Virus record (IMG/VR): IMGVR_UViG_3300045988_132388
Origin: a virus
DNA: 64,000 bases
Strand: one strand, 5' to 3'
Part shown: positions 1 through 52,397 of the stretch, piece by piece
Numbering within the stretch: the first letter of the stretch is position 1
Layout of the letters: each line of letters begins with the position of its first letter
Made by a program: the position numbers and the translations under genes
Notes under the pieces: generated by a model
Databases searched by the model: none
Told to the model about the DNA's origin: nothing
What the model saw: only the letters and a program-made list of their open reading frames with translations

Positions 1-29
1 ATATTCTATAAAGTATTTAAAATGTTATT

Positions 30-66
30 GCCGCTCTTGGTCCGCGAGGATGAAGGGCGGCTTTTT
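30..66. terminator. GC-rich hairpin plus T5 run just past the 3' end of the lysis genes
   Basis: GCCGCTCTT (30-38) pairs with AAGGGCGGC (53-61) as a 9-bp stem and is followed by TTTTT (62-66). It lies immediately downstream of the minus-strand endolysin stop. Confidence 0.45.
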
Positions 67-82
67 AGTAGAGGTGAAAAAA

Positions 83-520
83 TTATTTCTTGAAGAACCA
101 GTCGGCTTCCCACTGTCTGCGCTTTACCAGTCCTGGCAGAACTTTTTTGCCGCAATGCACCCATTTGGCGAACTCTGCTCTTATCTCCGCCTCACTGGCT
201 CTTGCTGTCACCTTCTTCAGTAGGGTGGAACTGGCGAGACGTGCGCTGCCGAGGTTGTAGCAGAAGTCGCAGAGGGCATCAAACTCAAACTGGTTTCGGC
301 ATACTTCGAGGTTGGTGACGAAGCGTTCGGCAGATGCGAGGTCACGGCGCAGGAGTTCCGTTGCGGCATCCCGTGTTATCGTCATGTGAGGCTTTACGTC
401 GGGACCGTAGTGTCCGTAGCCGATGGTTAGATACTTCTCCGTCTTGTATGCCTTGCAGGGTTTCGCGGAGAATCCTTCGAATGTCTTGATTTTTTCAATC
501 AGTAAGTCACTTGCTTTCAT
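83..520 (-). CDS. endolysin, T4/lambda-type lysozyme (glycoside hydrolase 24-like)
   Basis: 145 aa. The N-terminal FEGFSAKPCKAYKTEKYLTIGYGHYG matches the E-x8-(D/C)-x5-T catalytic pattern of GH24 phage lysozymes. A small 2-TM protein is adjacent. Confidence 0.88.
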   Translation of the reverse strand: MKASDLLIEKIKTFEGFSAKPCKAYKTEKYLTIGYGHYGPDVKPHMTITRDAATELLRRDLASAERFVTNLEVCRNQFEFDALCDFCYNLGSARLASSTLLKKVTARASEAEIRAEFAKWVHCGKKVLPGLVKRRQWEADWFFKK

Positions 521-591
521 GTTGTTTATTTTTTATGTTTTTTGCATCAGGTAAAACAGATTTCACGAATCTTTTCTTCTTCGTGCAACTT

Positions 592-840
592 TTATAATAT
601 GTAGTTTATCCAATTGACGGGAAGAGTATTGGCGAGGAGGACTCTCACCATGCACCCCACCGCCACGGCGAGGCATCCTCTCATTATGTCTCCCCTGTTC
701 CACTCACCATGGTAGTAATGGCAGCGGTCGTTGTCTTCATGCACTATCAACGCCAGCAGACCGAAGCCGCCGCCCAGCAGCACGGCAATACCGAAGTATA
801 CCGCCATGCCCATTATGTTCCTTCTCGTTTTCTGTTTCAT
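592..840 (-). CDS. putative holin (small 2-TM membrane protein)
   Basis: 82 aa with two hydrophobic helices (MAVYFGIAVLLGGGFGLLALIV and GCLAVAVGCMVRVLLA). It lies directly upstream of the endolysin. Confidence 0.55.
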   Translation of the reverse strand: MKQKTRRNIMGMAVYFGIAVLLGGGFGLLALIVHEDNDRCHYYHGEWNRGDIMRGCLAVAVGCMVRVLLANTLPVNWINYIL

Positions 841-946
841 TGTCCCTTTTTTACGTTATACGTTGAAAACCTCTTTGTCGCTCACTATTATATGCAAGCC
901 GTCCTGGTCGTTCCATACCTCAATCATGCAGTCGTGGTCAAGGCAG

Positions 947-2188
947 TCATCCACAATGTCGCCCAATAGCATCATATCCGTACAGTACTTTTTCTATGTT
1001 TCTCTTGTCTCTCAGCATCCTCTTTGCCGCTTCGCCTTCCCTGTACCGTTTCTTCAGCCTTACACTCCTGAACCGACCTTTCACATAGACGTACCTATAG
1101 AAGTCATCGCTGAGCATAGACAACGCCTTGCGTCGTATGGCATAGCTGTTGCAGTGGGTCATGATGCCGAGATAGCTATTGAGGGAGCATACGAAATGCC
1201 TTATTTCCACCACACTGCAGTCCTGAACCCTGCTGTTGATATAGTGTACAAGGTCAAACAGTTTCGCCACCGTGCGGTTGCCGATATACACCCTGTCTTT
1301 CTTCACCACCATACCCGTGAACTTCGCGCCCTTGTACGCATCCTGCACCATAATCTTGCGAGGATGGAGCGTAACGTCAAGCGTGCGCAGGTACTCTCTT
1401 ATCTTCGGTATGCTGTTCAACAACACCCCTTTGTTGCCATGCACAATAATGAAGTCATCCACATATCTGCCGTGGAAGGAGAATCCCAATGCCAACTCCA
1501 GCATCCAGTCGAAGTCCGACAGCCAGTAGTTGGCGTTGTGCTGACTCGTCAGATTACCGATTGGCACGCCGTGTCCGGGTTTTGATGTCTCCAAGGATTT
1601 CCCTTTGGGGACTTTATCCACCAGATCCTGTGGCGATTTCCGTCGGCATCCGTCAAGAGGGTCATTCATTATCGTTACCATCGATAGGTAGCGTAGGTCT
1701 TCTTTGTCGCTGCCATCGTAATACTTCATAATGAAGCGGTCCACTTTCTCGGCAAGAGCTTTTCTCGGTATGCTCATGAAGAATCCCTTCATATCGCATT
1801 TTAGATACCAGCACGGCTTCGTGAAATTTCCGGAGCACAGTCTGATGTCGTCCCGTAGCTGCATGATGCCGTAGAGTTGTCCTTTCCCTTTTCTGCAATT
1901 ATACGTCCTTGTATTGAACACCTTCTCATACAGAGGTTCCAGGCGCAACATGATATAGTGGTGTATGACCCTATCGCGGTAGTTTGCCGCAAAAACCTCC
2001 CGGAGGACAGGCTTGGTAACAACGAACGATATGGAAGGCAGAGGCTCGTAACATCTGTTGTTGATGTCTTCCGTCAGACTTGTTATATTCTCAAACAGCC
2101 TGATATTGAACTGTATAGCATCGGGCGATTTCGCCTTCCTCTTTATACAGTTGTAATGAGCCTTCAGTAATTCTTCTGCTTCAACCAT
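947..2188 (-). CDS. DGR reverse transcriptase
   Basis: 413 aa. Contains RT motifs including the DGR-specific IGNLTSQ (I/LGxxxSQ) and the catalytic YVDDF. It lies 31 nt downstream of the template repeat. Confidence 0.92.
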   Translation of the reverse strand: MVEAEELLKAHYNCIKRKAKSPDAIQFNIRLFENITSLTEDINNRCYEPLPSISFVVTKPVLREVFAANYRDRVIHHYIMLRLEPLYEKVFNTRTYNCRKGKGQLYGIMQLRDDIRLCSGNFTKPCWYLKCDMKGFFMSIPRKALAEKVDRFIMKYYDGSDKEDLRYLSMVTIMNDPLDGCRRKSPQDLVDKVPKGKSLETSKPGHGVPIGNLTSQHNANYWLSDFDWMLELALGFSFHGRYVDDFIIVHGNKGVLLNSIPKIREYLRTLDVTLHPRKIMVQDAYKGAKFTGMVVKKDRVYIGNRTVAKLFDLVHYINSRVQDCSVVEIRHFVCSLNSYLGIMTHCNSYAIRRKALSMLSDDFYRYVYVKGRFRSVRLKKRYREGEAAKRMLRDKRNIEKVLYGYDAIGRHCG

Positions 2189-2219
2189 ACCTGTATGTTT
2201 ACCGCTTTTCTCTTCTTAG

Positions 2220-2345
2220 TGCTGTAACCGGACGAACTTGATTGCTAACGCCGCGGCCGTTGTTGCCGCGATTGCCATTGTCGAAGTTCAGATTCCTCGC
2301 GTTCGTAGCGCCGTTCTCGACACACGACCAATAGTTCGCACGATT
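2220..2345 (-). repeat. DGR template repeat (TR)
   Basis: Gap-free alignment to 2938-3063 at an offset of 718. All 14 mismatches in the 122-nt core are at T on the plus strand, which is A on the coding strand. The TR reading frame is rich in AAC/AAT codons. Confidence 0.92.
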
Positions 2346-2383
2346 TTCCTGCATTACCTTATTCTTAACTGATTCCCGACAGC

Positions 2384-2842
2384 CTACAAACGCTGTCGCG
2401 GATTGACAGTAGCAGGACCATTATTCAACTGAGAATCGCTTCTCCCGTCAGCCGTAGCCGGACGGAACTCTCGCTTTCTGTCATTGACCGCAACGGGATT
2501 CGATGACTTTCTCATAGCTGTAGCCTGTCTGCCGATAGAGGTCATAAGACGACAGATGTCCGCCTGTTTTCTTTCGTCGAACAGCTTGCGCTCAAAACAG
2601 AGACGCAGCAGGGTACCAAGCAGCTCATACTTCACCGTAAAGCCGAGTATATACTTGTATCGGTTTTCAAACGGCGCAATATTATAAAGCTGTATATACT
2701 CAAACAGCTCCAGTGTCACCTTCGTCAGCTTTTCGCCGAGGTCGTATCTGAACATCCGTGGAAAGTTCCCCTTCCACCCCATCAGCTTGCTTGTCAGCTC
2801 GTATGTCGCCTTGTATATCTGCGTATCCCTTGCCAGTCCCAT
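2384..2842 (-). CDS. avd: DGR accessory variability determinant (four-helix-bundle, 23S rRNA IVS-protein-like)
   Basis: 152 aa. The helical N-terminal ~115 aa (YKATYELT...LGEKL...ELFEYI...) are typical of the four-helix-bundle/Avd family. It is positioned between the target gene and the TR. Confidence 0.75.
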   Translation of the reverse strand: MGLARDTQIYKATYELTSKLMGWKGNFPRMFRYDLGEKLTKVTLELFEYIQLYNIAPFENRYKYILGFTVKYELLGTLLRLCFERKLFDERKQADICRLMTSIGRQATAMRKSSNPVAVNDRKREFRPATADGRSDSQLNNGPATVNPRQRL

Positions 2843-2863
2843 GTCTCTTTTCTGTCGTTAAGG

Positions 2864-2886
2864 CTTCCCGACACAAGGTCGGGAAG
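2864..2886 (-). promoter_or_regulatory. perfect 9-bp hairpin downstream of the VR
   Basis: CTTCCCGAC (2864-2872), loop ACAAG, GTCGGGAAG (2878-2886). It lies about 50 nt 3' of the VR/stop codon on the coding strand and has no U-run. Confidence 0.5.
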
Positions 2887-2931
2887 TAGAGAGATAATCG
2901 AAATTGATAAATTGATTAAATGATAAATGGA

Positions 2932-3684
2932 TTAAAATGCTGTAACCGGACGAACTCGAGCGCTAACGCCGCGGCCGTTGCCGCCGCGACCGCCAATGCC
3001 GAAGTACAGATGCCTCGCGCTCGCAGCGCCGTTCTCGACACACGACCAATAGTCCGCACGGTTGAGTGGTACCGCCCTCTGCTTGCCTGCCGCATTGATG
3101 CGTGCGATGGCAAGGTTGATGGTGTTGAAGTGATCGTGGATCAGGGCAAGGTCGCCCATCGTGGGCAACCACCAGGACTTCGCCGCAATGACGCTGTCGC
3201 CGCCCACGTCGCCTGTATGCCCTTTCGAGTATGCGTAGGCATACGCCACGGCGTAGGTATCGGGGCTGTCGGAGGCAAATGCTGCGTTCGCCATAATCGC
3301 CGCCGTGCGAGCCTTGCCGTCATACGAGTTCAGATCCTGGCTGCTGTTCACCTCTACCGTCGTAGAGCTTCCCCACTGTCTTGTCACCTCGTCGAGGGCG
3401 ATACCGAGACGGTATCCTCCATACTGGACCACTATGGCATCGGCATCCGCCTGGGTTATGCCGATATTCGTGCGGTTCCACTCTTCCATTCGCAGGTAAG
3501 ATCCCCTTTCCTCTCTCTGCATCTTACCGATAAATACTCCGTCGCCAAGAGCCGTAAGGTTCTTGTTCATCAAATCCACCATGTCGTTTTTTGCTATCTT
3601 TAGAAAATCGTCCTTGATAGCGTTGCTTACTACCGTCGGGTTGGCTGCCAACCACTCGGTCAGTGATATTGTCTTGATTGCCAT
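2932..3684 (-). CDS. DGR target protein, C-type-lectin/DUF1566-like variable C-terminus (probable receptor-binding tip)
   Basis: 250 aa. Contains WWLPTMGDL plus a C-terminal ...DYWSCVENGAASARHLYFGIGGRGGNGRGVSARVRPVTAF that carries the VR. It is adjacent to the 848-aa fibre gene. Confidence 0.85.
   Translation of the reverse strand: MAIKTISLTEWLAANPTVVSNAIKDDFLKIAKNDMVDLMNKNLTALGDGVFIGKMQREERGSYLRMEEWNRTNIGITQADADAIVVQYGGYRLGIALDEVTRQWGSSTTVEVNSSQDLNSYDGKARTAAIMANAAFASDSPDTYAVAYAYAYSKGHTGDVGGDSVIAAKSWWLPTMGDLALIHDHFNTINLAIARINAAGKQRAVPLNRADYWSCVENGAASARHLYFGIGGRGGNGRGVSARVRPVTAF
2938..3063 (-). repeat. DGR variable repeat (VR)
   Basis: Matches the TR (2220-2345) and ends 3 nt before the target stop codon. 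14 adenine-specific differences affect about 12 codons. Confidence 0.92.
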
Positions 3685-3718
3685 ATAATTTTTATTGTTT
3701 AAAAGTTAATAATTCTGT

Positions 3719-6265
3719 TTATTTGGTATTTGCCATGTGTAGAGCGTAGTATTCCGTGCCGTCCCACACAAGCAGGATGTCTATTATATTACCTGCGTTA
3801 CAATAGAGTCCGTCTGTCTTCACGGAGCTCTTGTTGTATAGTTGCGGAACTTGTGTGGTGTTATACGACCCACTTGTCTGGCGACCGCAAATCTTTACGT
3901 TGTGCGGTGATACAGGGCTACATATCACCTGTACTCTCAAGCACCATGTGTGGTCGGCGCTTGCGATAAATGCTGCCACATCGTCGCGTTTGGGTAACAC
4001 CGCAAGCACATCAACCTTTGGGCAGACAAAAAGCCAACGGTTGCCATAGGTGTTCAAGTTCACACACCCGAACTGCTCCGTATTGTGCGTAATGGGCGCA
4101 AAGGATATACCCTCTATCATACCTCGCAAGACGCCATGTCCGACACCCATAAAGGCATAGTTCCTTCCTTTTATACTACCCGAAGCCTCCAGCCATGCCG
4201 CCACATTGTACGTACCCCACGGTATGTCAGTTTTCGCATAGTTTACCTTGAACTCCGCTCCCATCAGGAAGTTGTTGTCACGTATCACGCCCACCTTGCT
4301 GCTCAGATTGCCGCCGTCTGCGGAGATATGGATATTGCTCGCTTCACCTTTGGAAGTGCCAAGCCAATCATCAGGGATGTTATACGTAAGTCCGTTACTT
4401 CCAACTTCAAAACCACCGAGTATTGTGCCGTCCTTCTGCCGTTCACCGCAGAACTTTCCGCCGTTAATCCACGAGCTGTCCGTCACGTTTATGTTTTTGT
4501 ATATTCCGTTTACAGCAGTAATATCAGTAAACGTGCCGCCATTGGAATGGATATTCTTGAATGTGCCGCCGTTGCAAACAATATCGTCCGTCTCGAACAC
4601 ACCGTCAGCATTCACCCTTGCGGTCGTCTTGCCGAGGTTGTTTCTTACCTCGAACTTATCTGCCGTCACGATAACTTTCCGGTTGAAAATGTCGATTCCT
4701 GTCGCTAACATCTCCTCTGTCGTGATAGCCCTGTTGGTGTATTCCGTCGCCCTGCCGTAGGGTTCGAGCTTCAGTCCTGCTATCGCAATCATGCTGTTCT
4801 TCCTCAGCTGCACGGGAATAACGCCTACTGTGCCATCGGTATCTACGCTGAACGTCACGCTGTATCTCGTCCATTCGTATGTCAGCGTCCTGTCGGGCGA
4901 TACGGCGCCGTTGCCGTCCATCGACCAGTTACCATCGTCACGCACTGCCCACGAACAGCCGCTGTTGCTGCCATCGTAGAGATAGGAGTTGAACGAACCT
5001 TTGCCCTGCGCCCAGAAGCTCAACGTATAGACCGAACCTCTGCCGAGCGTCAGCACCTTGCCCGAATCCACCACGTCGAGGTTTGCCGACGAGGATGAAG
5101 CACCCGCAACCACATCGAGCATTTTTCCGTCAATCTCCGCCTTGTCGTCAGCTATCGCCGTACCGTTGCCGAAGCTCCATGCGTTGCTGCGGATGTCGGG
5201 CAGGATATTACCGAGAGCAACAGCATCATCTCTGTTTGCCGACCATGCCGTGCCGTAGCCGTTCGCCGCATCCTCTATCTTCTCTATCTGCGCACATTGC
5301 AGGAAACACTTGCCGCCGCCGTCGTCCTTGCGAGGGTAGGGGAACACGGCAAACTGATATTCTCCTGTCGCTCCGGCATGTGTCCATTTCGTCTCCGCCT
5401 TGCTGTCGGTGGTAGACCTAAGGTCCACATACTGCGTATACGTCCATGTTCCGCTGCCATTCTCCTTGTAGACATAAGCCCTCATGCTGCCGCCACGGGC
5501 AGAGAGTGTAGCGTCAATCCGTCCCCAAATGCTCATGGCATAACTCTTGCCCTTCTCTAAGCGTACCTTGCGCTTGCAGAAGCCGTAGATGCCGCTGCCC
5601 TGGTTCACATAGGAGTTAGGAATCAGATTTCTGTCCCTCACCTCCGTCTGGTTTACCTTCGCACTAATCCTGTTGGAAGTCACCTCTAACGTGCCGACTC
5701 TCTTCGTGAGAGCACCGTTCGCAGTTTTGAGAGAATCAATCTTCCCTTCCGCACTGTCCACTCTGTCGCTTATGCTCGTATAGCTTGCAACAAGTCCCTT
5801 GCTCGTAGAAGACAAGCCACCCCAGAAGGAGCCGCCGTCAACCGTGAACTTCACCTGTGCCGTATACGTCTTGCCGTCGAGTGTGCAGGGGATGGAGATG
5901 TTGGCATATCCTGCCGTACTCGGAATCCTGTGTCCGTCAACGGTCGCTGCCGTGTTGATGGCAGAAAACTGTACCAGCCCCACGGCGCTGCCGCCGACAA
6001 CACTCTTCGATACATAGCCTTGGCAGTTTACGAACACCGCGTTCTTGTCGGCGAAGGTGCAGGAGGCTGTAATGTCCTCGCTGCCCTTGAATACCTTTAT
6101 CTGCGCCTTCTGCGACAACGAGGAGCTTTTAATCTCTCCGTTGTCGTCAGTAGAGAACACAAGGGTGTCGGGGGTAATCCTTACGACAACCCCGTCTTCG
6201 CCATCCTTGCCGTCCTTACCCTTGCGCAGATAGTTTACGATTGTTACATATTGTGCTCCTGCCAT
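3719..6265 (-). CDS. tail fibre / receptor-binding protein
   Basis: 848 aa. Has an N-terminal collagen-like KGKDGKDGEDG, a coiled segment (RVDSAEGKIDSLKTANGALTKRVGTLEV), and repeated jelly-roll-like blocks beginning NLIPNSY... and NILPDIRS... It lies between baseplate-like genes and the DGR target. Confidence 0.65.
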   Translation of the reverse strand: MAGAQYVTIVNYLRKGKDGKDGEDGVVVRITPDTLVFSTDDNGEIKSSSLSQKAQIKVFKGSEDITASCTFADKNAVFVNCQGYVSKSVVGGSAVGLVQFSAINTAATVDGHRIPSTAGYANISIPCTLDGKTYTAQVKFTVDGGSFWGGLSSTSKGLVASYTSISDRVDSAEGKIDSLKTANGALTKRVGTLEVTSNRISAKVNQTEVRDRNLIPNSYVNQGSGIYGFCKRKVRLEKGKSYAMSIWGRIDATLSARGGSMRAYVYKENGSGTWTYTQYVDLRSTTDSKAETKWTHAGATGEYQFAVFPYPRKDDGGGKCFLQCAQIEKIEDAANGYGTAWSANRDDAVALGNILPDIRSNAWSFGNGTAIADDKAEIDGKMLDVVAGASSSSANLDVVDSGKVLTLGRGSVYTLSFWAQGKGSFNSYLYDGSNSGCSWAVRDDGNWSMDGNGAVSPDRTLTYEWTRYSVTFSVDTDGTVGVIPVQLRKNSMIAIAGLKLEPYGRATEYTNRAITTEEMLATGIDIFNRKVIVTADKFEVRNNLGKTTARVNADGVFETDDIVCNGGTFKNIHSNGGTFTDITAVNGIYKNINVTDSSWINGGKFCGERQKDGTILGGFEVGSNGLTYNIPDDWLGTSKGEASNIHISADGGNLSSKVGVIRDNNFLMGAEFKVNYAKTDIPWGTYNVAAWLEASGSIKGRNYAFMGVGHGVLRGMIEGISFAPITHNTEQFGCVNLNTYGNRWLFVCPKVDVLAVLPKRDDVAAFIASADHTWCLRVQVICSPVSPHNVKICGRQTSGSYNTTQVPQLYNKSSVKTDGLYCNAGNIIDILLVWDGTEYYALHMANTK

Positions 6266-6279
6266 ATTCCTTCAAATTT

Positions 6280-7371
6280 TTAAAGCGTTACTGTTGCCGT
6301 TATCGCCACCTGCACGTTGCCCACATTGGACACAATCTCCTCGGTTACAACGAACTGCTCCTTGTCTGTAATCGGGTCGTCGTATACCGTAGAGCCTTCG
6401 GGGTCGTAGATGACGAACTTCCACTCCACCTTGCTGTCGGGAATAACGGTGTCGTTCATCATTACTACAGGTGTCCATTTCACCTGCGCATGGGTGGGGT
6501 CGCCCTCAATAATCTGCTCGTCCTCCGGGGTAGGGTGGGGTTCTATGCGCAGAGGGTCGGAGATGTCCTTAACGAGCTGTGTGTCCCAGCCTACATTCTC
6601 TCCCGATGCTCCAGTCACCACAACCTTGTACATCCTTGACTGGTTCACGTCTGACGGAGTTACGGTCAACGACTGTGAGGTCTTGCCTGTCAGAATCTCC
6701 ATCACGCCAGTCTCGTTGTTGTTCGCATACCATTGATACTTGAATCCTGATGTAATTGGCGAACCCTCAGCTGCACTGACCTCTGCCGTCAATACCGTGG
6801 ACGCATAGGTAGGGTCACTCGCACTCACAAGACCGCCGTTAGTGGCTCGTATGTTCACTACCGACGCACCAACTGACGCAAGCTTGATGCCCACGTTGGT
6901 ACTTGCCGATACACTTGCGCTGCTCATGCCGTTGGCGATGGTGGCAGTCGCCATGATGTTAAACGGTGTAGCCTGCGAAGCCACAACAACGTTTTTTATT
7001 ATCTTCAGTCCTGCCCTGCGCTGTGCTGTGGCATCCGCATCAATGAGCTGGAAATGTCCCGTTTCACCATTGAAGGTGTTGGTGGAGATACCCTTGTCAT
7101 TAAAGGTCAGCAGGGTGTTTGCCACACGCCATGCCACGCTGCCCTTACTCGGGTAAATCTCGCTGCCCGACTTTTTTGAGCTGAATATCGCCAATTCCAC
7201 GGTCGGCGGATTTGTCTCAAACGAAGGCGAAATGCCTGTTGCTTGCTTGGTGTTCGGGTCGTAACTTGTGTACTGCTGGTATATGTCTCCATAGTCGGAA
7301 ACGAGCATAGCGGAGTATGTTCCGCCCTGCTTGGTATATTGTACTTCAACGATATAACTCGCTTTATCCAT
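6280..7371 (-). CDS. virion protein with Ig-like/beta-sandwich repeats
   Basis: 363 aa, Thr/Val/Ser-rich beta-type sequence with internally similar segments, in the tail operon. Confidence 0.5.
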   Translation of the reverse strand: MDKASYIVEVQYTKQGGTYSAMLVSDYGDIYQQYTSYDPNTKQATGISPSFETNPPTVELAIFSSKKSGSEIYPSKGSVAWRVANTLLTFNDKGISTNTFNGETGHFQLIDADATAQRRAGLKIIKNVVVASQATPFNIMATATIANGMSSASVSASTNVGIKLASVGASVVNIRATNGGLVSASDPTYASTVLTAEVSAAEGSPITSGFKYQWYANNNETGVMEILTGKTSQSLTVTPSDVNQSRMYKVVVTGASGENVGWDTQLVKDISDPLRIEPHPTPEDEQIIEGDPTHAQVKWTPVVMMNDTVIPDSKVEWKFVIYDPEGSTVYDDPITDKEQFVVTEEIVSNVGNVQVAITATVTL

Positions 7372-7374
7372 GTC

Positions 7375-7845
7375 TTACTCCTTTCTTTTTTTGTTGTCTA
7401 CTGTACTTTCTTTCTGCTCTTCCTGGTTCTCTGCCCCGTCTGTCGGCATGTGCGACATGTTCTCGTCAGGTATCACAGGCGGTGTGACCGGCACTACAGG
7501 CTCTGCGGTCTCCGTATTGCCGGAATTGTCATCTGTAGTCCCCTCCGCTGTCTCTGTTGTCTTTGTAGAGCTTGCCTCTGCTTCTGCGTCCTTGTCTAAA
7601 TAGATTGGGGTGTACACGGTAGCTGGAGGGTTTGCCGTGCCGTTGCGCTCTGCCTTTGCTTCCATAGGCGAAAGCAGGGCACCGCCCACATAACTTACCC
7701 TGTCGGCAAGCGTCAAGCCCGGCACGCTGTTGATGTCGGTCATCCAGATAATGTAATTGCCGTCCTTTGTCTTGTTTCTTAACGCGAGGTTGGCGAATAG
7801 TTTTGCAACCTTCGTGGTCACTTTGATTCGTGGAAACTGTGTCAT
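7375..7845 (-). CDS. hypothetical virion protein with acidic disordered C-terminus
   Basis: 156 aa ORF packed between structural genes on the same strand. Confidence 0.55.
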   Translation of the reverse strand: MTQFPRIKVTTKVAKLFANLALRNKTKDGNYIIWMTDINSVPGLTLADRVSYVGGALLSPMEAKAERNGTANPPATVYTPIYLDKDAEAEASSTKTTETAEGTTDDNSGNTETAEPVVPVTPPVIPDENMSHMPTDGAENQEEQKESTVDNKKRKE

Positions 7846-7859
7846 GATTCTTATTTTTT

Positions 7860-9098
7860 TTAGTTCGTATATACTAATTTTCCGTCATCGGTGGCAACAT
7901 AGCTGTCGCCATCCGTGAGAAGCTTCTGTGCTCCCTTGTCTTCAACGCCGAGCCCGATTACCATTCCTGCTGAGAAAGGTATTTCAGGGTTTATCTCGTT
8001 GGATACCACCTTGTCAACGGTCTCGTCAGACTTTCTTACTGTCCAGCTAACAGTGAAATGCTTGTTTATCTCCTCGTCCGTCAACGTCTTGCCGTCCACT
8101 TCCACTACGCAGCGAGGGTTAATGTACTCCTGGTCGGGGTCGGAAGCGTTGCTCACGCCAAGTATGTATGCCTTGTAGTCCGGCATCGTGCGCTTTGCCG
8201 CTAATTCGGCGTAAGGGTCACGCTCGCCGAAGGTGTCTGAAGATCTCAGGGCTGTCCTTCTCATTGCCTTGCACACATACATCTCCATGTCGCCTATAAG
8301 GTTTCTGTCAATCGTCAACGTGCTGCCCTGTACATCGGTCTCCACACCGTCCACGACAGCTTTCTTTGTGGACAATGACACCACGTCCACATCCTCGATA
8401 TGTGTGCCATCGATAAGCTGTAGGTCGTAGGATGTGCCCTGCACATTCACCTTCCTGTACCACTCAAATTTCGTATTCTTAGCGTTGGTAATGTCTCCGC
8501 TACCGTCTGTCAGCAGAGCCTCGAATGTCACGATGGAAGCCTCTGTGACAGGATTCCACACCGATACGGTAGGCGATATATGTAATACTGGAACTGTCTC
8601 TTCCATGTCGTCGCAGAGGATGGTCTTCTGTGCGACGTAGTTGTACACCTGTCCGGACTGGGGGTCAACATACCGTCCCTCGAATTGCAGTCGGATGGGA
8701 TTCTGTACCGAACTGTTCTTGTTGACGAGTAGCATACCCCTTGTCAGCCCGTCGGCAGAGTTACTTACAATCTCGTAGCCGTTCTTGCCGTTCACAATGG
8801 CATCACCTTTCACGTACTTGTTTGATGTCTTGTTATAGACCATCTCGTACCAAGCGAAAGTGAAATTGTCGCTGCTGTTGATATTCACATCCTCACCGCT
8901 GCCGTTCACGTCACGGCTGTTCATGGCACGGCATACCGGGAACAGACATAGCGGTCCATCCTCGTAGTCGGGATAGAAGCCGCCCGTTGCACTGTTGTAG
9001 ACTTGCCTGTCTACCGTGCCTCCGTAGGGAATGATGTCCACGCTCACGTCGAGCGGAGTATAGATAATCCCTAATCTTCTTTTTTTTGCGATTCTCAT
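7860..9098 (-). CDS. hypothetical tail/baseplate protein
   Basis: 412 aa ORF in the structural operon. No recognisable motif. Confidence 0.6.
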   Translation of the reverse strand: MRIAKKRRLGIIYTPLDVSVDIIPYGGTVDRQVYNSATGGFYPDYEDGPLCLFPVCRAMNSRDVNGSGEDVNINSSDNFTFAWYEMVYNKTSNKYVKGDAIVNGKNGYEIVSNSADGLTRGMLLVNKNSSVQNPIRLQFEGRYVDPQSGQVYNYVAQKTILCDDMEETVPVLHISPTVSVWNPVTEASIVTFEALLTDGSGDITNAKNTKFEWYRKVNVQGTSYDLQLIDGTHIEDVDVVSLSTKKAVVDGVETDVQGSTLTIDRNLIGDMEMYVCKAMRRTALRSSDTFGERDPYAELAAKRTMPDYKAYILGVSNASDPDQEYINPRCVVEVDGKTLTDEEINKHFTVSWTVRKSDETVDKVVSNEINPEIPFSAGMVIGLGVEDKGAQKLLTDGDSYVATDDGKLVYTN

Positions 9099-22321: not shown

Positions 22322-23500
22322 TTACTTTGCCTTGAAGTTGTATATCGGCTTGATGCGCTCCACGATTTTTACGGTGTCGCCTATCAACGCTTCTATTTCC
22401 TTTGCCGACTTGTACGCCATTGGAGCTTCGTCGATGGTGGACTCACATACCGATGTGGAGTATATATCGTGCATCTGCTGTCGGTATTCCTCCATACTGA
22501 ACTGTTTCTTTGCCGCCGAGCGCGACATCAGTCTGCCTGCACCGTGGGGAGCCGACCGAAGCCAGTCGTCATTGCCCTTGCCGATACATAGTAGTGAACC
22601 GTCACGCATATTCAGAGGGATAATCAACGGCTCGCCAAACTCTGCGCTCACGGCTCCTTTGCGGATGATGCCATTGAAGATGTTGATATAGTTATGTACG
22701 GTGGTGAACGATTCGCCCCATGTCTTTATTCCGAGGCCCTTGATGATGGTTTGCGCCATAAGTCGGCGGCTCGTTTCGGCATACATCTGGCACACGTGCA
22801 TGGCATCATAGTAGTTGACGAGCGTGAAACCGCTGATATAGGCCATGTCTTTAGAAACGGGCTTCAGCTGGCGTAGCGCGTCGTTTATCTCGCTCTGTCT
22901 GCCCTGGGCTTTCAGTTCGGAAATGATACGTTCCCGCTCATCGCTGTTGTTGCATTGTCTTGATGCCAACTGCTGGAAATGCTTGCATATCTTCACGCCT
23001 AAATTGCGGCTACCCGAATGTATCACGAGATACTTGCGTCCGCTATTGTCCACGTCCACCTCGATGAAGTGGTTGCCACCGCCGAGGGTGCCAAGCGAGC
23101 GCATGACGTAATTGAGGTCGAAAAAATATTCCCAAGAATGCATAAATTCCCGAATTTTGCGCAACATAAGGTCAACCATATCCGAGGCTAAGGGACGCTC
23201 GTGCACGTTGAATCCGCTTGGAATATTGTCGTTGATGATGCGATCGAGCAAGGACAGGTCGATGTTGGCAAAGCCTAAATTCACGACGTGCATACCACAG
23301 CCTATATCCACGCCTACGGTATTAGGTACAACCTTGCCGGCAGTCTGAATTACCGTACCTATTGTGCATCCCTTACCCGCATGACAATCGGGCATAATGC
23401 GTATCTTGCAGTCGCGATAAGCCTCGCTCTCTGCCATCCGCCTTACTTGCTCCTGGGCTTCCGGCTCGATGGTCTTTGCAAAAATCTTTAAGTCGCTCAT
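22322..23500 (-). CDS. rtcB: RtcB-family RNA ligase (3'-phosphate/5'-hydroxyl)
   Basis: 392 aa. Carries MPDCHAGKG, VGVDIGCGM, GGGNHFIE, HSGSRNLG, HNY, APHGAGR and DEAPMAYK, which is the full RtcB motif set. Confidence 0.92.
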   Translation of the reverse strand: MSDLKIFAKTIEPEAQEQVRRMAESEAYRDCKIRIMPDCHAGKGCTIGTVIQTAGKVVPNTVGVDIGCGMHVVNLGFANIDLSLLDRIINDNIPSGFNVHERPLASDMVDLMLRKIREFMHSWEYFFDLNYVMRSLGTLGGGNHFIEVDVDNSGRKYLVIHSGSRNLGVKICKHFQQLASRQCNNSDERERIISELKAQGRQSEINDALRQLKPVSKDMAYISGFTLVNYYDAMHVCQMYAETSRRLMAQTIIKGLGIKTWGESFTTVHNYINIFNGIIRKGAVSAEFGEPLIIPLNMRDGSLLCIGKGNDDWLRSAPHGAGRLMSRSAAKKQFSMEEYRQQMHDIYSTSVCESTIDEAPMAYKSAKEIEALIGDTVKIVERIKPIYNFKAK

Positions 23501-34589: not shown

Positions 34590-34650
34590 TTAAAATTTTG
34601 TGTTTGTGTTGTTGTTATCCTGAATACAACCTTTTTACCAGTTGCTAAAG

Positions 34651-34724
34651 TTGCGGAGGAGGGACTCGAACCCTCGACCTCCTGGTTATGAGCCAAGCGA
34701 GCTGCCAGCTGCTACTACTCCGCT
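34651..34724 (-). tRNA. tRNA with CAU anticodon (Met, or Ile2 if lysidine-modified)
   Basis: Minus strand: acceptor GCGGAG/CTCCGC; D loop AGCTGGCA; anticodon arm CTTGG-CTCATAA-CCAGG; variable AGGTC; T arm GAGGG-TTCGAGT-CCCTC. The acceptor/D junction is slightly irregular (6 clean bp). Confidence 0.75.
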
Positions 34725-46928: not shown

Positions 46929-49900
46929 TTATGCCTTACCTTTCATAAACTGATAGGCTTTTGTCATGCTGTCATAGAGTTTACCACGGCCATACATATC
47001 TATTCTTGCCTCTATTGGCTCGTCGAGACGCACGAGGAGGGCTCGTACGGCTTGCAGGAGGGCTGCATTGCTGGCGACGCTTGCTGTCAACAGGTCGTCT
47101 GCCGCTGACGCGCCAGACGGGAGATTACCTATGGTCTCGCCAACGTTGCCATTATCAAATGCCCGGCGGGACGCGCTGCGTCCCGAATAGTTGCGGTCGT
47201 AATTGACGAGAGCCTTCAGAAGTTGCGGATTGTTCATCATCATGGCTTGTGTGGTCTCGCGTCCGATTACCAATTCTGGGCCATTCTCGGCTACTAAGGA
47301 TGGTTGGCCGTTGATGGTGGTGGCGGTAGGCTGTGTGAGGAGCGATACGCCATCGTGGGGCTTGTTGTCCTCTGTTGCCCAATAGAGACTGCCATCGTTG
47401 CCAACGAACGGTTTCAGGTCTTGCACGTTACCGGAATCGTAAGTAAGCATGCCGGAGACGATTTTGGTGTTTTTGCCGGAAGAAGATGTGTTTGCCTTAT
47501 CACCTCCTCCAATCTTACTGATAGCAAAGTTGAGCAAGCCCATAAGGGTAGCCATCATTGCACTAAAGGCGATTGGTCCGGCGATAGGTCCGAGAGTGCT
47601 GACACACCAGCCGAAGATACCTGCTGAACGAAGGGCTGCCATTACTTGCTGATGAATACCTTCAAGTTGCTGTTCGGTCAAATGCGTTGCTTCATCCGCA
47701 GCTATCATTGCTTCCCCATTAGCTACCTGTCCTTGAACTTGTGCCGTACCGAACGCCTGCTGCATAAGGAGCAACTGCGTATAGTGAGCCGTGGTCTGCG
47801 CACGGTCTATTTGCTGTTGGCTTATCATCTGAAGGGTGTTGGTGGCAAACGCTTTTATCATCTGCTTTAAGGCTGTCTTCAATGCCTTGCGTCCTTCAGA
47901 AGCGTTTTCGGTCATAGTGGCAAAAGCATCGCCCACCGACTCGCCGAAGGTTTGCAACGGTCCCATGAAGGTAAGAAGTGAATTATACTGCTCAAACATA
48001 TCTCCCGTGAGCTTCTTGGCATAGTTAGCCTGTTCTGCCATGATTGACTTTCGGGCATCAGCAAGATGTAGCTCACTGGCGTTGTGCTCTTCGAGGAACC
48101 TATAATATCGCTCGGCAAACTCCATGCGAGCCTTCATTAGTTCAAGTTCAGGATCGGAAGCCTGTACCGACTCCATACCCATACGCTGACCGGCATTACG
48201 GTAGCCACCCTTGACTGCCACCTCTTGCTCTGCACCAGGTAGAGCTTTCTGATATTCCTTATAATAATCAGTCTTAGACCATCCGTAATCATTCAGTCTC
48301 TTGCGCTCGTCGTCGCCCTTCTTGCTTGCCGACTCGTATTCGTTGTTATACTTTATCAGTTCGAGATAAAGAGCCTTGAGATTTTGCGCCGAGAGTTTTG
48401 AAAAATCGAAGCCCTCATTTGCTACAGACAGGAACTGAAGGAACTGATTCTGAAATTCCTCGCTTTCCGGATTGAGACTATATAATACAGTAATAGACTC
48501 GCGTGCCTTAGTAGTCAGCTTGTCAAAAGCAACATTCATCTTTTCAAGACCTTCGGGAGAGTCGGTACGAATACCCGCGGCTGGCTGCAGGAAACCTAAG
48601 CGATCGAAATTGCTACGGGTGTTGCGGTCAACAGCACCTGTATAGTCATGTTCGTTCAAGATCTTCTGTATCTCGCGCTGACGGGCAAGCAACTTCTCTG
48701 CTGCCTCGCGCAATTCCTTAGAGCCATTGGCAAATATCTGGTCGAGCAATGCGCCGAGGTTTTCTGCGAGAGTCTTATTGTTTTCGCGAGAGAGGTCGCC
48801 GGACAGTTTGGTGAACAATTTATGAAGTTCGCCCACATCCGCTTTGCCAATCAAATCGAGCAGTTGCTTAGAAGTTTCCTCATCGTAAACCATCACATCC
48901 TCGTCCATGTGGGAATAGAACTCTTTCCAGCCATCGCCAAGATTAGTGATAGACTGGCGAGCCGTACCAAGAGCACGATCCATTTGCGATTGTAGATAAT
49001 CCAACTGTTCCTTCTGCTGACCTTCACTAATCTTCTCCCCATCGGCATTCATCTGAACCACCCATTCCAGGTATTTGCGCATTTGTTCCTCATAGAAAGC
49101 CTTGATATTAGCGATAAGCGCATTGGCACGGTCTTTTGCTATGTTCTTTTCATCACGGTTAGGATTACCACCGGAACCAGTGTTTCCCCCACCTTTACCA
49201 CCACCAACAATTTTTTCCTTTTTCTTGTCTTTCTTGTCATCAACAACAAGTTTTGCTCCAAATTCTTTATACAACGCATCCTCTTGTGCAACAATATCTT
49301 TATATTCGCGTAGAGCTTTATTACGCGCCCACTCTGCTGCATACTTTTGCATCCGTTGTCCGATAGCACCGGATGCCTGTCCACCCATCGCAGCACCACC
49401 CGAAGTGACCGGTGTTGCTCCAAAATATTTTTTAGAAGACTTCGCAAGTTTTTTCGAGTCAAGAGAATATGTAGGGTTAGGTGTACCGGAAAAGGTATTC
49501 ACATTAGTATTGGCATACGCTTCTGTCTTCTGCTGAAGTTTAAGGAAAGCATCCACTTTTTTACGTCCAAGTTCGGCAAGTTTAGAGCGAGCACCTTCCA
49601 GTTCATAGTAACTCTGCAAACGCGTGAAGTTTTTATCCCAAGCCTTAGTGTTCTCTTTAACAGCTCCTGTCTCTGAGTTAATCTTTGCGTTAAGGTTAGG
49701 AATAGCGCTATTCAACTTTTCCATAGCTTGACGACGAAGAGCCATAGAGGCTGTAGTATCGTGCATCACGTTGTGCAAACTCTTCAAGGATTCTTGCTCC
49801 TCCATAGCTCTGCGCTTACCTTCCTCTTGAACCTCATTGAGCACTCGCTGTCCTGCTGACACCTGATAAAGCGAAGCCGTCCACTGGGCAAGTTTCACAA

Positions 49901-52397
49901 CAAGAACTCCAGCAAGACCAATAAGACCGCCCATCACACTCATCTGTCCCACAAAAGATAACTTCTTGAAAGACGAAAACATCACATTCCAAGCGTTCGC
50001 AAGAGACATTGTTTTGCCAGTCAACCCAGTTGTAAGTTCTGCTAACTTAGCAAACGCACCGGCTACTCCTGCCGTACCCAACATAGTAACGAGCGTCGGC
50101 AACATACTAAGGAACAGCTTCATTGCGGTCATAAGCAGCATAATAAGCATACGCACCTCGGTCATAAACGTAATGTTATGAACGAGAGCATCCACCATTT
50201 CATACCATGCCTTAGCCAAATCGCGCACCGGACCACTTGCAGCATCTGCCGAAACGAACTGCTTCTCAAAAAGGTTAGCGGCTCGTTCCATATATGCAGC
50301 AGCGGTCTCCTGCTGCATTTCATACTCCGTAGTAACAGCCGTACCCTCATTGAAAGCCTTGTTAGATTCAGTAACGGCCTTGTCGAGCATACCTACTTTT
50401 TCTGCCATCGTAACCATGACCTTAGTAAGACGAGCACCGTCCTCAGAACCAAGATCCTTGAAGAGAGAGTTTAGCGCAAACACGTTCTTGCTTTCGTGCA
50501 TCTTATGGAATATAGTTTGAATGGCTTCCATACCTTTGCCTTCCTCAACCATCTTCTTCAACGATCCTTGCGCAATGCCAAGGTCTTTTTCTATTGAAGA
50601 AGTTCCCTTGCGCAACTCTACCACAAGTTTACCAAACGCAGTAGCTGCCACTTCGGGCTCAAGGGCCATGGAGTCTACAGCAGAACCGATAGCGAGAATG
50701 TCAGGTGTCGTAAGGGATGCTGCATCACCAAGCGCAAGCAAACGGTTGGAGAAGTCAACGATTTTGCCCGAACTGGCCGTAGATGTAGATGCCAATCGGA
50801 AAATGGCAGAGCCAGTTCTCAGCATAGCATCTTCCACGCCATACTTATCTATAAGGCCCGACACCTCAGTAATCTTAGCAAGAGCCGTTAACGCTTCAGC
50901 GCCCAAATCCTCTTTCAATGCGACGTTTACCTGGTCGGCGGCACGAACGAAACCTGCTAAATCTTTAGTTGTAACGCCAAGCTTAGCTCCCGCATAGGCC
51001 AAGTTGTTTAGCTCTTCTATGCTTGTACGGGTCTCAATTTTAGAAAGTTCCTTAGACAACTGAGCCACGTCTTCTTGTGAACTTAGCGCAACCTTGCGGA
51101 TATTGGTAAGCTGTTCTGCAAACTTGGCGTTCAGACGAAATATATCAAAGAGATATGTCTTGAGCATATTGAACGCTGAAAACAATCCGACGTATGCCGT
51201 GAGGTTCTTCAGGGCTGTCTGCCATGCCCCGCCCTGCTTGTGTGCTGCGCCCGTCGCCTCGTCGATATTCTTCTTCAGCTCCTTCATCGACTTCTGTCTG
51301 TCAGCAAACTCCTTACTCTTGGTATTAATTTGGTTCAGTTCCTCTTCGAGTTGCTTGTAAGCACGACGCAGTTCGTCGAGAGAAGCCTTGCCTTGCTTGC
51401 TACGAGTGAGAATGTCGTTAAGAGCCATCTGCGACATGCGGGTACCCTTGAGGGTCTGTTCGAGCATGGAGTATTGGCGACGGAGGTCGGCTACATACTT
51501 GCTACCAGCGGGGAGTTGTTGTATCTTCTGTGCGATTACTTCCATCGTGCGCTTGATGTCTTCACCCGAAGCCTTGTTAGGTTCAGCCAATACCTGCTTC
51601 ATCTGCTTCCAGCTCATTGATGCTTTCTGAGTCTTACCCGACACAGCCTCTAATCGCTTCTCTATCTCCTGGAGCTCGCTGTTGTATTTTGCAATATCAG
51701 CCGAATTGCCTGTAGGTGTATTGTCGCGAGCCTCAGTAAGCGTAGACTTGGCTCGGCGCAAATCAGATGCCGAAGCGTTTTGACTGGTTACGGTCTGACG
51801 AGCCTCAGTTACGCTCATCTTACCCTTGCGTCTGTCCTCCTCGGCTTCAAGCTGCTTCAATGTGGCGAGATTCTGCTGATAGGACGCATCCGATTTTTGC
51901 AGCGAACCTACGAGGTCACGCTGTTGCTTGATGGCCTTGTCGAGCCATTGATCTGACTGGTTGGAGACATTCTTCAGACCATCAGCAATCTTGACGTACT
52001 GACCCTCTATAAGGCGTATCTCATCACCCACCTGCTTCATCTCGCTTCGTATCTGCTCTGCCCTTTTCAGGTCGGCATCCGAGCCGGTAAGTTTAGCGAG
52101 AGCCGACTTGCCAGAACCCATAGCGCGGCGCAGATCGCGGAGCTTAGTATTGGTGAGGTCTTGCACCACCTCGCCCAATCGTTTCGTGTCCTCGATATTG
52201 TCGCGCTGCACTTGCGAGAGAGCCTTTAGCGTGCGTTCAGCCTGCTTACACTCAGCCGTATTAGCCTGACCTGCGGCTGTCATCCTCTGAATGTCGGCAG
52301 TATATTTTTGCACAAGATTGTCAATCTCTTCCAACACCTTCTTGGCTGTAGAGGCATTGGCCGTGATTACTACTTTTGCTAATCTTTGTGTTGCCAT
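46929..52397 (-). CDS. tail tape measure protein
   Basis: 1822 aa. Long coiled-coil segments, central hydrophobic/TM blocks (MLIMLLMTAMKLFLSMLPTLVTMLGTAGVAG; MSVMGGLIGLAGVLVV) and Gly-rich stretches. The size and architecture are typical of a TMP. Confidence 0.85.
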   Translation of the reverse strand: MATQRLAKVVITANASTAKKVLEEIDNLVQKYTADIQRMTAAGQANTAECKQAERTLKALSQVQRDNIEDTKRLGEVVQDLTNTKLRDLRRAMGSGKSALAKLTGSDADLKRAEQIRSEMKQVGDEIRLIEGQYVKIADGLKNVSNQSDQWLDKAIKQQRDLVGSLQKSDASYQQNLATLKQLEAEEDRRKGKMSVTEARQTVTSQNASASDLRRAKSTLTEARDNTPTGNSADIAKYNSELQEIEKRLEAVSGKTQKASMSWKQMKQVLAEPNKASGEDIKRTMEVIAQKIQQLPAGSKYVADLRRQYSMLEQTLKGTRMSQMALNDILTRSKQGKASLDELRRAYKQLEEELNQINTKSKEFADRQKSMKELKKNIDEATGAAHKQGGAWQTALKNLTAYVGLFSAFNMLKTYLFDIFRLNAKFAEQLTNIRKVALSSQEDVAQLSKELSKIETRTSIEELNNLAYAGAKLGVTTKDLAGFVRAADQVNVALKEDLGAEALTALAKITEVSGLIDKYGVEDAMLRTGSAIFRLASTSTASSGKIVDFSNRLLALGDAASLTTPDILAIGSAVDSMALEPEVAATAFGKLVVELRKGTSSIEKDLGIAQGSLKKMVEEGKGMEAIQTIFHKMHESKNVFALNSLFKDLGSEDGARLTKVMVTMAEKVGMLDKAVTESNKAFNEGTAVTTEYEMQQETAAAYMERAANLFEKQFVSADAASGPVRDLAKAWYEMVDALVHNITFMTEVRMLIMLLMTAMKLFLSMLPTLVTMLGTAGVAGAFAKLAELTTGLTGKTMSLANAWNVMFSSFKKLSFVGQMSVMGGLIGLAGVLVVKLAQWTASLYQVSAGQRVLNEVQEEGKRRAMEEQESLKSLHNVMHDTTASMALRRQAMEKLNSAIPNLNAKINSETGAVKENTKAWDKNFTRLQSYYELEGARSKLAELGRKKVDAFLKLQQKTEAYANTNVNTFSGTPNPTYSLDSKKLAKSSKKYFGATPVTSGGAAMGGQASGAIGQRMQKYAAEWARNKALREYKDIVAQEDALYKEFGAKLVVDDKKDKKKEKIVGGGKGGGNTGSGGNPNRDEKNIAKDRANALIANIKAFYEEQMRKYLEWVVQMNADGEKISEGQQKEQLDYLQSQMDRALGTARQSITNLGDGWKEFYSHMDEDVMVYDEETSKQLLDLIGKADVGELHKLFTKLSGDLSRENNKTLAENLGALLDQIFANGSKELREAAEKLLARQREIQKILNEHDYTGAVDRNTRSNFDRLGFLQPAAGIRTDSPEGLEKMNVAFDKLTTKARESITVLYSLNPESEEFQNQFLQFLSVANEGFDFSKLSAQNLKALYLELIKYNNEYESASKKGDDERKRLNDYGWSKTDYYKEYQKALPGAEQEVAVKGGYRNAGQRMGMESVQASDPELELMKARMEFAERYYRFLEEHNASELHLADARKSIMAEQANYAKKLTGDMFEQYNSLLTFMGPLQTFGESVGDAFATMTENASEGRKALKTALKQMIKAFATNTLQMISQQQIDRAQTTAHYTQLLLMQQAFGTAQVQGQVANGEAMIAADEATHLTEQQLEGIHQQVMAALRSAGIFGWCVSTLGPIAGPIAFSAMMATLMGLLNFAISKIGGGDKANTSSSGKNTKIVSGMLTYDSGNVQDLKPFVGNDGSLYWATEDNKPHDGVSLLTQPTATTINGQPSLVAENGPELVIGRETTQAMMMNNPQLLKALVNYDRNYSGRSASRRAFDNGNVGETIGNLPSGASAADDLLTASVASNAALLQAVRALLVRLDEPIEARIDMYGRGKLYDSMTKAYQFMKGKA

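Follow-up and report, generated by a model that had tools for sequence, protein, structure and literature searches.

A complete BPP-1-type diversity-generating retroelement and its DUF1566-type target in an uncultivated gut phage

The diversity-generating retroelement (DGR) of BPP-1 (AY029185) has the order mtd-avd-TR-brt, where TR is the template repeat and the variable repeat (VR) lies at the 3' end of the target gene, and a structured spacer RNA 3' of TR is involved in the binding of Avd and the reverse transcriptase (RT) as well as in priming (bioRxiv 10.1101/2023.10.23.563531). Similar stem-loops 3' of TR have been reported for 207 of 278 Avd-type DGRs (bioRxiv 10.1101/2023.10.23.563531). 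In the DGR of Legionella pneumophila, and in DGRs with targets of category 'd' (CLec2), to which DUF1566 targets have been assigned, VR is part of a DUF1566-type C-terminal domain (Wu et al. 2018, PMC5758913). DGRs have also been recorded in the Bacteroides phages Bacuni_F1, Bacuni_F2 and Bacuni_F4 (MT635598, MT806186 and MT806185), in which differences between homologous VRs track with host range (PMC8143477). Here, we describe a DGR in a stretch of viral DNA of 64,000 nucleotides (IMG/VR record IMGVR_UViG_3300045988_132388; hereafter the window) that comes from an uncultivated phage of ~100 kb from the human gut. On the minus strand of the window, the order of the cassette is target, avd, TR and RT, i.e. 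the canonical DGR order claimed in a preliminary description of the sequence and the same order as in BPP-1 and Bacuni_F1. The Bacuni phages are the closest characterised relative of this DGR.

The preliminary description had also proposed that the cassette is complete. All its parts are present and intact: the RT is nearest to the RT of BPP-1 (bRT), models of Avd are matched by the product of the avd gene, and mismatches between TR and VR are restricted to adenines. Moreover, the genes for RT, Avd, the target and an adjacent open reading frame (ORF) of 848 aa were confirmed where that description had placed them on the minus strand (Table 1). We conclude that the DGR itself is real and belongs to a well-known type with a DUF1566 target. 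As a whole, the locus is best explained as a complete DGR cassette of BPP-1 type by which an uncultivated gut phage of ~100 kb randomises the C-terminus of a likely tail-tip adhesin, an explanation to which we assign a probability of about 0.88.

With an offset of 718 nt between them, TR and VR form a gapless alignment of 123 nt. It contains 14 mismatches, all of which are at TR adenines (ten A>G, two A>C and two A>T), and the two repeats do not differ at any non-adenine position. If 14 mismatches were placed at random among the 123 positions, all of them would land on the 31 adenines with a probability of 2.7e-10. The gapless alignment, the confinement of every mismatch to a TR adenine, the substitution counts, the wealth of AAY codons and the translations of the two repeats were all described correctly at the outset, and substitutions without an adenine bias, which had been named as evidence that would speak against a DGR, were not seen in the alignment (14 of 14 at adenines). 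Two details needed correction. The repeat is 123 nt long and not 126 nt or a core of 122 nt, and the outer 3 bases that had been counted in include a T/C difference and lie outside the homology; also, 17 of 31 rather than 16 of 30 TR adenines are unchanged. With respect to codon positions, 14 TR adenines are at position 1, 14 at position 2 and 3 at position 3. None of the possible substitutions at TR adenines creates a stop codon, and the theoretical repertoire is ~10^16.5 protein variants. A second VR was not found in the window, also when it was scanned with TR pieces of 40 and 60 nt.

The adenine-only substitution pattern is a property not only of the element in the window but also of its family. 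Scans of metagenomes, viral contigs and genomes gave 55 related loci, in 41 of which TR was found; in these 41 loci, 522 TR/VR mismatches are at adenines and 14 are elsewhere. An adenine-masked scan of viral contigs for exact TR/VR pairs gave no match because relatives differ from the window at non-adenine TR positions. In a set of 98 target homologues, each at least 76% identical, nearly every protein forms a singleton cluster, and the mean entropy of codons with a TR adenine at position 1 or 2 (2.28 bits) exceeds that of the remaining VR codons (0.83 bits) and of residues 1-208 (0.37 bits).

Pairs of closely related loci in a sister clade provide direct evidence of recent activity in the family. 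In the pair L015/L017, TR is identical and the target outside VR is identical (644 nt) while the VRs differ at 11 positions; in the pair L013/L029, TR is identical, the target outside VR is 99.84% identical and the VRs differ at 20 positions. All VR differences in both pairs are adenine-templated. Thus, VR has recently been diversified in the sister clade. The DGR of the window is probably active at present as well, as judged from its intact parts and from these relatives.

The steps by which a DGR diversifies its target are established, and the parts of the cassette in the window can be assigned to them. RT and Avd would bind a transcript that extends from the 3' part of avd through TR into the beginning of the RT gene, and RT would copy TR into complementary DNA (cDNA) faithfully except opposite adenines, where any base could enter. 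The cDNA would then take the place of the homologous VR in the 3'-terminal part of the target gene, and an 18-nt segment common to TR and VR would set the 3' limit of change. In this way, a C-type-lectin-like DUF1566 domain would be randomised on its ligand-binding face at up to 18 codons (10 of them AAY), while the scaffold codons free of adenines would stay fixed. A target diversified in this manner would alter the host surface to which the phage binds.

The RT matches Pfam RVT_1 (E 3e-14) and the reverse transcriptase family PHROG 1423 (E 2e-74), and its best sequence match in the PDB is BPP-1 bRT (8ub7, E 4.6e-15), compared with ~1e-4 for retron and group II RTs. In BLASTP, the RT is 25% identical to Brt (E 2e-19). 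The motifs IGNLTSQ and YVDD, which follow the [I/L/V]GxxxSQ and YxDD patterns of DGR RTs and are present as the preliminary description had written them, align with IGSLTSQ and YMDD of bRT, and relative to BPP-1 bRT there is an insertion of ~35 residues (roughly residues 160-200). The reading frame is full length, the catalytic motifs are intact and no inactivating change, likewise named in advance as potential counter-evidence, is visible. Other types of RT were rejected: the match to the group II intron RT/maturase model TIGR04416 reached 66.8 bits (cut-off 300), the match to the retron model Retron St85 36 bits (cut-off 235) and the matches to the defence RTs Drt2, Drt3a and Drt4 20-33 bits (cut-offs 200-450).

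Avd matches Pfam bAvd (E 2.9e-8; 34.6 bits, cut-off 40), NCBIfam DivGenRetAVD (E 4.7e-7; 30 bits, cut-off 80) and PHROG 3206, 'Avd protein of DGR' (E 3e-14), and it shares 34% identity with the protein annotated as Avd in Bacuni_F1. Its conserved core comprises residues 1 to ~114 and is followed by a tail of 38 residues that is translated through an RNA element described below. In the sister clade, this tail is missing and avd stops ~100 nt earlier; the tail in the clade of the window is therefore probably incidental. A structural model of Avd from the single sequence has four helices and a disordered tail at low confidence (predicted local distance difference test score (pLDDT) 45). Searches of the PDB with the single sequence or with a profile of 10 sequences did not find Avd structures, and an hhalign comparison with BPP-1 Avd was not significant.

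In the target, a helix at the N-terminus and a small beta domain precede a C-terminal DUF1566/Lcl_C domain that ends in VR. This agrees with the position of VR in other DGRs, where it lies in variation-tolerant domains of C-type-lectin-like or Ig-like type. Pfam Lcl_C/DUF1566 (PF07603) is matched by 102 of 119 target homologues; the copy in the window itself gives no Pfam match. In the AlphaFold2 model (pLDDT 86), the best fold match in the PDB is the C-terminal domain of Legionella Lcl (8q4e; probability 0.99, E 1.9e-3), which has been characterised as C-type-lectin-like and trimeric (PMC11162425). Mtd-, TvpA- or FGE-type structures were not among the 50 PDB fold matches listed for the model, and its matches in BFVD are phage DUF1566 proteins and C-termini of annotated tail fibres (E down to 2e-18). 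These results agree with the previous designation of the target as lectin-like. The target was also correctly described as a separate protein of 250 aa adjoining the 848-aa ORF, and about half of the category 'd' targets are likewise short proteins with little beyond the DUF1566-type domain (PMC5758913). A signal peptide is not evident at the N-terminus of the target.

The target gene had been placed beside the tail fibre. This is probable in so far as the gene upstream of the 848-aa ORF (6280-7371) matches the tail protein family PHROG 3267, and the 848-aa protein is a probable tail fibre or receptor-binding protein with weak annotation. It has a weak match to CBM_4_9, weak coiled-coil matches to sigma-1 and gp26 and a GKDGKDGEDG motif near its N-terminus; searches of Pfam and NCBIfam left the neighbouring genes of the tail region almost unannotated. 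In the related locus L040, the C-terminal third of the 848-aa protein (3719-4600 of the window) is replaced by unrelated sequence (3745-4459 of L040), while the DNA from ~4602 to at least 8000 of the window, i.e. the rest of the fibre gene and the genes upstream, is 92.6% identical. This replacement is a module swap typical of receptor-binding proteins. Most likely, the target is an adhesin at the tip of the tail fibre. The preliminary description regarded host-range switching as the likely role of the target; by analogy with BPP-1 and the Bacuni phages, and in view of the weakly annotated neighbours, this role is plausible.

Directly 5' of TR, the cassette contains a conserved RNA element with three nested helices (P1, P2 and P3; Table 1) and strong support from covariation. 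The element was identified in an alignment that runs from the end of avd into the beginning of the RT gene, with statistics calculated on 19 distinct sequences, and the minimum-free-energy fold of the window sequence alone has the same three helices. In the alignment, 91.4% of the cells assigned to pairs are paired compared with 29-44% when the partners are slid by 1-3 columns, and 13 of 19 pairs change on both sides compared with 0-5 in the slid controls; none of 500 shuffles reached the observed values. The frequent G-U pairs favour an RNA of the sense strand. A covariance model of the element has one match per DGR-carrying locus, always just 5' of TR and RT, and the element is also present in further clades whose RT is 57-60% identical. 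The model has no match in DGR-deleted relatives, in Bacuni_F1 or in BPP-1, and the regions upstream of TR in Bacuni_F1 and BPP-1 fold no better than shuffled sequence. Separately, in the related loci L019 (5826-6809) and L028 (5822-6801), the unit of RNA element and TR occurs twice in tandem, ~765-769 nt apart, which reflects a true duplication or else an error of assembly due to the TR/VR repeat.

The spacer between TR and RT is short (~30 nt) in relatives too. RNAalifold on 9 diverse relatives did not give a convincing helix in the 31-nt spacer or the first 170 nt of the RT gene (covariation term -0.11), and RNAduplex did not detect a position for a primer-template duplex with the 3' end of TR that is conserved between clades. 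A helix in RT codons ~20-35, suggested by the fold of the window itself, was rejected because the sister clade does not have it. A possible long-range helix would pair the region of the RT start (GUAUGG, ~2183-2191) with CCAUAU (~2030-2036), ~150 nt into the RT gene; one of its pairs covaries, with three pair types among nine relatives, which is weak evidence.

We infer that the 5' RNA element helps to assemble the reverse-transcription complex. This element is the sole departure from the textbook picture of a DGR. A more far-reaching proposal, which we put forward only tentatively and consider rather doubtful, is that in this clade of Bacteroidales-phage DGRs the RNA scaffold by which RT and Avd are positioned on the template is permuted compared with BPP-1. 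What the 140-nt spacer does 3' of TR would then be done, in part or in full, by the 5' element (binding of proteins and perhaps also the priming or the termination of cDNA synthesis), only 31 unstructured nucleotides would be left on the 3' side, and in the clade of the window the avd frame would be extended through the element.

TR ends at its 3' side (2220-2237) in an 18-nt GC-rich segment, GTTCGTCCGGTTACAGCA, that resembles the initiation of mutagenic homing element of a TR (IMH*) and is identical to the 3' end of VR (2938-2955). The three adenines inside this segment are unmutated, the last A-to-N difference is in codon 243, and residues 244-249 are nearly invariant in the 98 homologues. 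The segment thus has the position expected of an IMH-like boundary, yet it does not discriminate between TR and VR, for which a DGR would be expected to have non-identical ends (IMH in VR, IMH* in TR). Cases of identical IMH and IMH* exist, and discrimination must then lie further downstream (Wu et al., PMC5758913). Downstream of the target stop codon, the window has A/T-rich direct repeats followed by a GC-rich hairpin (Table 1), and at the place of these repeats the sister clade has direct repeats of another sequence, ATCTCTTT. The hairpin begins 48 nt past the target stop codon and 54 nt past the repeat and is not followed by a T-run. Most relatives have a hairpin in this position, with a stem that shows compensatory changes, and it is kept in DGR-deleted relatives; because of this survival, and although a T-run is missing, the hairpin may have a terminator-like role. 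In L007 (~1246-1268), the loop is ACAAG in place of CTTGT with an unchanged stem, as if the palindrome had been flipped. In phage DGRs, the reported hairpin/cruciform pattern has a 4-nt GRNA loop and lies 4-34 bp after VR (PMC3240598). The feature has been reported in only 34% of DGRs (PMC5758913) and is not obligatory for membership.

Compared with Bacuni_F1, the window has the same succession of target (DUF1566), avd, TR and RT followed by lysis genes. The RTs of the window and the Bacuni phages are 42-45% identical over their full length and the targets ~30% identical over 84% of their length; in both, VR comprises the last 35-40 codons, the spacer from TR to RT is short and the gap between avd and TR is ~120 nt, and both are phages of gut Bacteroidales. 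By contrast, the Bacuni phages have genomes of 40 kb rather than ~100 kb and no detectable shared DNA, they have two VRs whereas one was seen in the 64-kb window, and the hairpin loop is the canonical GAAA rather than CTTGT.

With BPP-1, the window shares the gene order, the place of VR at the 3' end of the target gene and a homologous RT with the same motifs; in both DGRs, substitutions are specific to adenines, a conserved 3' segment is IMH-like and a GC-rich hairpin follows VR. The two DGRs differ in the target, which in BPP-1 is Mtd with the Mtd-type lectin fold, in the loop of the hairpin and its distance from VR (PMC3240598), and in the surroundings of TR. In BPP-1, TR directly adjoins avd, and 144 nt separate it from brt; by contrast, the window has ~158 nt, including the structured element, 5' of TR and 31 nt 3' of TR, and its 18-nt 3' segment is identical in TR and VR. 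The DGR of L. pneumophila is similar in that VR lies in a DUF1566-type C-terminal domain (PMC5758913). However, its target LdtA is a bacterial surface lipoprotein encoded on a chromosomal island, whereas the target described here belongs to a phage tail/lysis module and has no evident signal peptide. More closely related copies are found in the chromosome of Segatella copri G8 (NZ_CP146523) and in gut viral contigs of the sister clade (target 46-49% and RT 57-60% identical). They have the same order, the 5' RNA element and adenine-only TR/VR differences, but their Avd does not have the 38-residue tail and their hairpin has a 6-bp stem and a 3-nt loop. At least one related copy is located in a bacterial chromosome and is therefore probably a prophage.

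The cassette has been lost in several close relatives. In L040, L059, L062 and L006, the targets are 83-88% identical to that of the window and avd, TR and RT are missing; these DGR-deleted relatives keep a frozen VR. The junction in L040 (5340-5400) is clean: besides the target and the hairpin, 52 nt from the beginning of avd are left, the join point is 57 nt past the RT stop codon, and the sequence that corresponds to 890-2789 of the window is missing. VR of L059 has 11 adenine and 2 other differences from TR of the window and also differs from VR of the window; the same template therefore gave rise to different VRs before the loss. Two other relatives, L027 (~5320-6360) and L052 (~6170 onward), have the same insert, beginning ACCCGTTGGCGGAATTAATTTA, at different sites: one relative has it between avd and the VR hairpin, the other within the 5' end of RT. 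This insert may be a mobile element.

Several observations weigh against the explanation of the locus as a complete cassette that diversifies a tail-tip adhesin. The scores of Avd are below the curated cut-offs of Pfam and NCBIfam, no counterpart of the BPP-1-type RNA elements of the 3' spacer was found downstream of TR, and the hairpin pattern of phage DGRs is not matched by a 5-nt CTTGT loop at 54 nt from the repeat. The location of the target in the virion is one that we infer. Moreover, the nearest other target protein is 88% identical and the clade of the window has no pair as close as those in the sister clade, so that the present activity of the copy in the window is deduced from its relatives. 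Finally, the loss of the cassette in several close relatives indicates that it is dispensable.

Three other explanations were weighed against this one. That TR and VR are an ordinary duplication whose copies drifted apart through chance or a general mutational bias, with no retroelement involved, has practically no probability: nothing speaks for it beyond the existence of the repeat, whereas 14 of 14 differences fall on the 31 adenines of one copy (P = 2.7e-10), the same asymmetry (522 versus 14) is seen in 41 loci, and the genes for RT and Avd are adjacent. It is unlikely, if less extremely so, that the cassette is a relic, i.e. that VR was once diversified by an element that is now inactive and that the 14 differences are frozen history. 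The deletion of avd-TR-RT from close relatives that retain a frozen VR would fit such a history, as would the non-canonical hairpin loop and the finding that at least 4 contigs (50-200 kb) encode the exact target protein and that variants of >90% identity are not on record. A relic is, however, difficult to reconcile with an RT ORF of full length in which the catalytic and DGR-specific motifs align with bRT, with an intact and conserved avd, TR and 5' RNA element, and with the recent activity in the sister clade; in addition, the absence of non-adenine divergence between TR and VR argues against long neutral drift.

An active DGR might also diversify a protein other than a receptor-binding tail protein, for instance a secreted or surface adhesin or a binder of mucus or glycans, in which case host range would not be tuned. 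In bacteria, DUF1566 domains are found in adhesins, among them the glycosaminoglycan-binding Lcl (PMC11162425); moreover, the target is a small separate protein and not the fibre itself, and the functional annotation of the target and its 848-aa neighbour is weak. Nevertheless, we consider this improbable: the target gene lies between tail and lysis genes as in Bacuni_F1, its product has an N-terminus with no evident signal peptide, annotated tail fibres of phages have the same fold at their C-terminus, and in the Bacuni phages it is host range with which VR differences track (PMC8143477).

Table 1. Features of the DGR cassette and its flanking genes in the window
Feature	Coordinates	Strand	Basis or remark
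Phage lysozyme	83-520	-	Pfam Phage_lysozyme, E 4.6e-34
82-aa protein	592-840	-	Hydrophobic N-terminal stretch; directly 3' of RT
RT, 413 aa	947-2188	-	DGR reverse transcriptase; catalytic motifs intact
TR-to-RT spacer, 31 nt	2189-2219	-	Purine-rich, CTAAGAAGAGAAAAGCGGTAAACATACAGGT; read from sequence
TR, 123 nt	2220-2342	-	Ungapped repeat with VR; 31 adenines, 10 AAY codons
RNA element, 71 nt	2347-2417	-	Three helices; directly 5' of TR; RNAalifold
P1	2412-2417 with 2347-2352	-	Helix of RNA element
P2	2407-2410 with 2368-2371	-	Helix of RNA element
P3	2392-2401 with 2375-2383	-	Helix of RNA element; 8-nt loop GTTTGTAG (2384-2391) holds the avd stop codon
avd, 152 aa	2384-2842	-	Avd models of Pfam, NCBIfam and PHROG
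GC-rich hairpin, 9-bp stem	2864-2886	-	CTTCCCGAC[CTTGT]GTCGGGAAG; DNA fold; downstream of VR
A/T-rich direct repeats	2901-2928	-	3-4 short ATTTATCA-like units between target stop codon and hairpin
Target gene, 250 aa	2932-3684	-	DGR target; VR at C-terminal end
VR, 123 nt	2938-3060	-	Target codons 209-249 of 250
848-aa ORF	3719-6265	-	ORF list; probable tail fibre or receptor-binding protein

The small protein encoded directly 3' of RT is a putative holin. The ORF of 51 aa (2199-2354, minus strand) that holds TR corresponds to the TR reading frame and is probably not a gene; its equivalent in Bacuni_F1 has been annotated as a hypothetical DUF1566 protein. Similarly, the plus-strand ORFs 2920-3603, antisense to the GC-rich target gene, and 731-1585, antisense to the RT gene, are probably not genes. 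Further away, the window encodes on its minus strand an RtcB-type RNA ligase (22322-23500; PHROG 1075, E 2e-126), a tRNA-Met (34650-34724) and a tape-measure-like protein of 1822 aa (46929-52397), the last of which is ~40 kb from the module of fibre and DGR. With respect to the phage itself, megablast of positions 800-6300 against GenBank phage records gave no match, and the terminase is at most ~29% identical to any of these records; thus, the phage has no near relative there. A scan of positions 1-8000 against Rfam with E up to 1 did not match any family.

DGRs are the main known route by which adhesins are rewritten in gut phages, and confirmed examples help to explain how these phages track changing host surfaces. 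What is new here is a complete cassette in a lineage of ~100-kb phages with no cultured or annotated relative. If the 5' RNA element takes part in the reverse-transcription complex, it would offer a compact template design for engineered DGR mutagenesis, and the RNA architecture of BPP-1 would not be universal among DGRs. Moreover, the relatives with and without the cassette constitute a natural series in which the value of a DGR to a phage could be measured.

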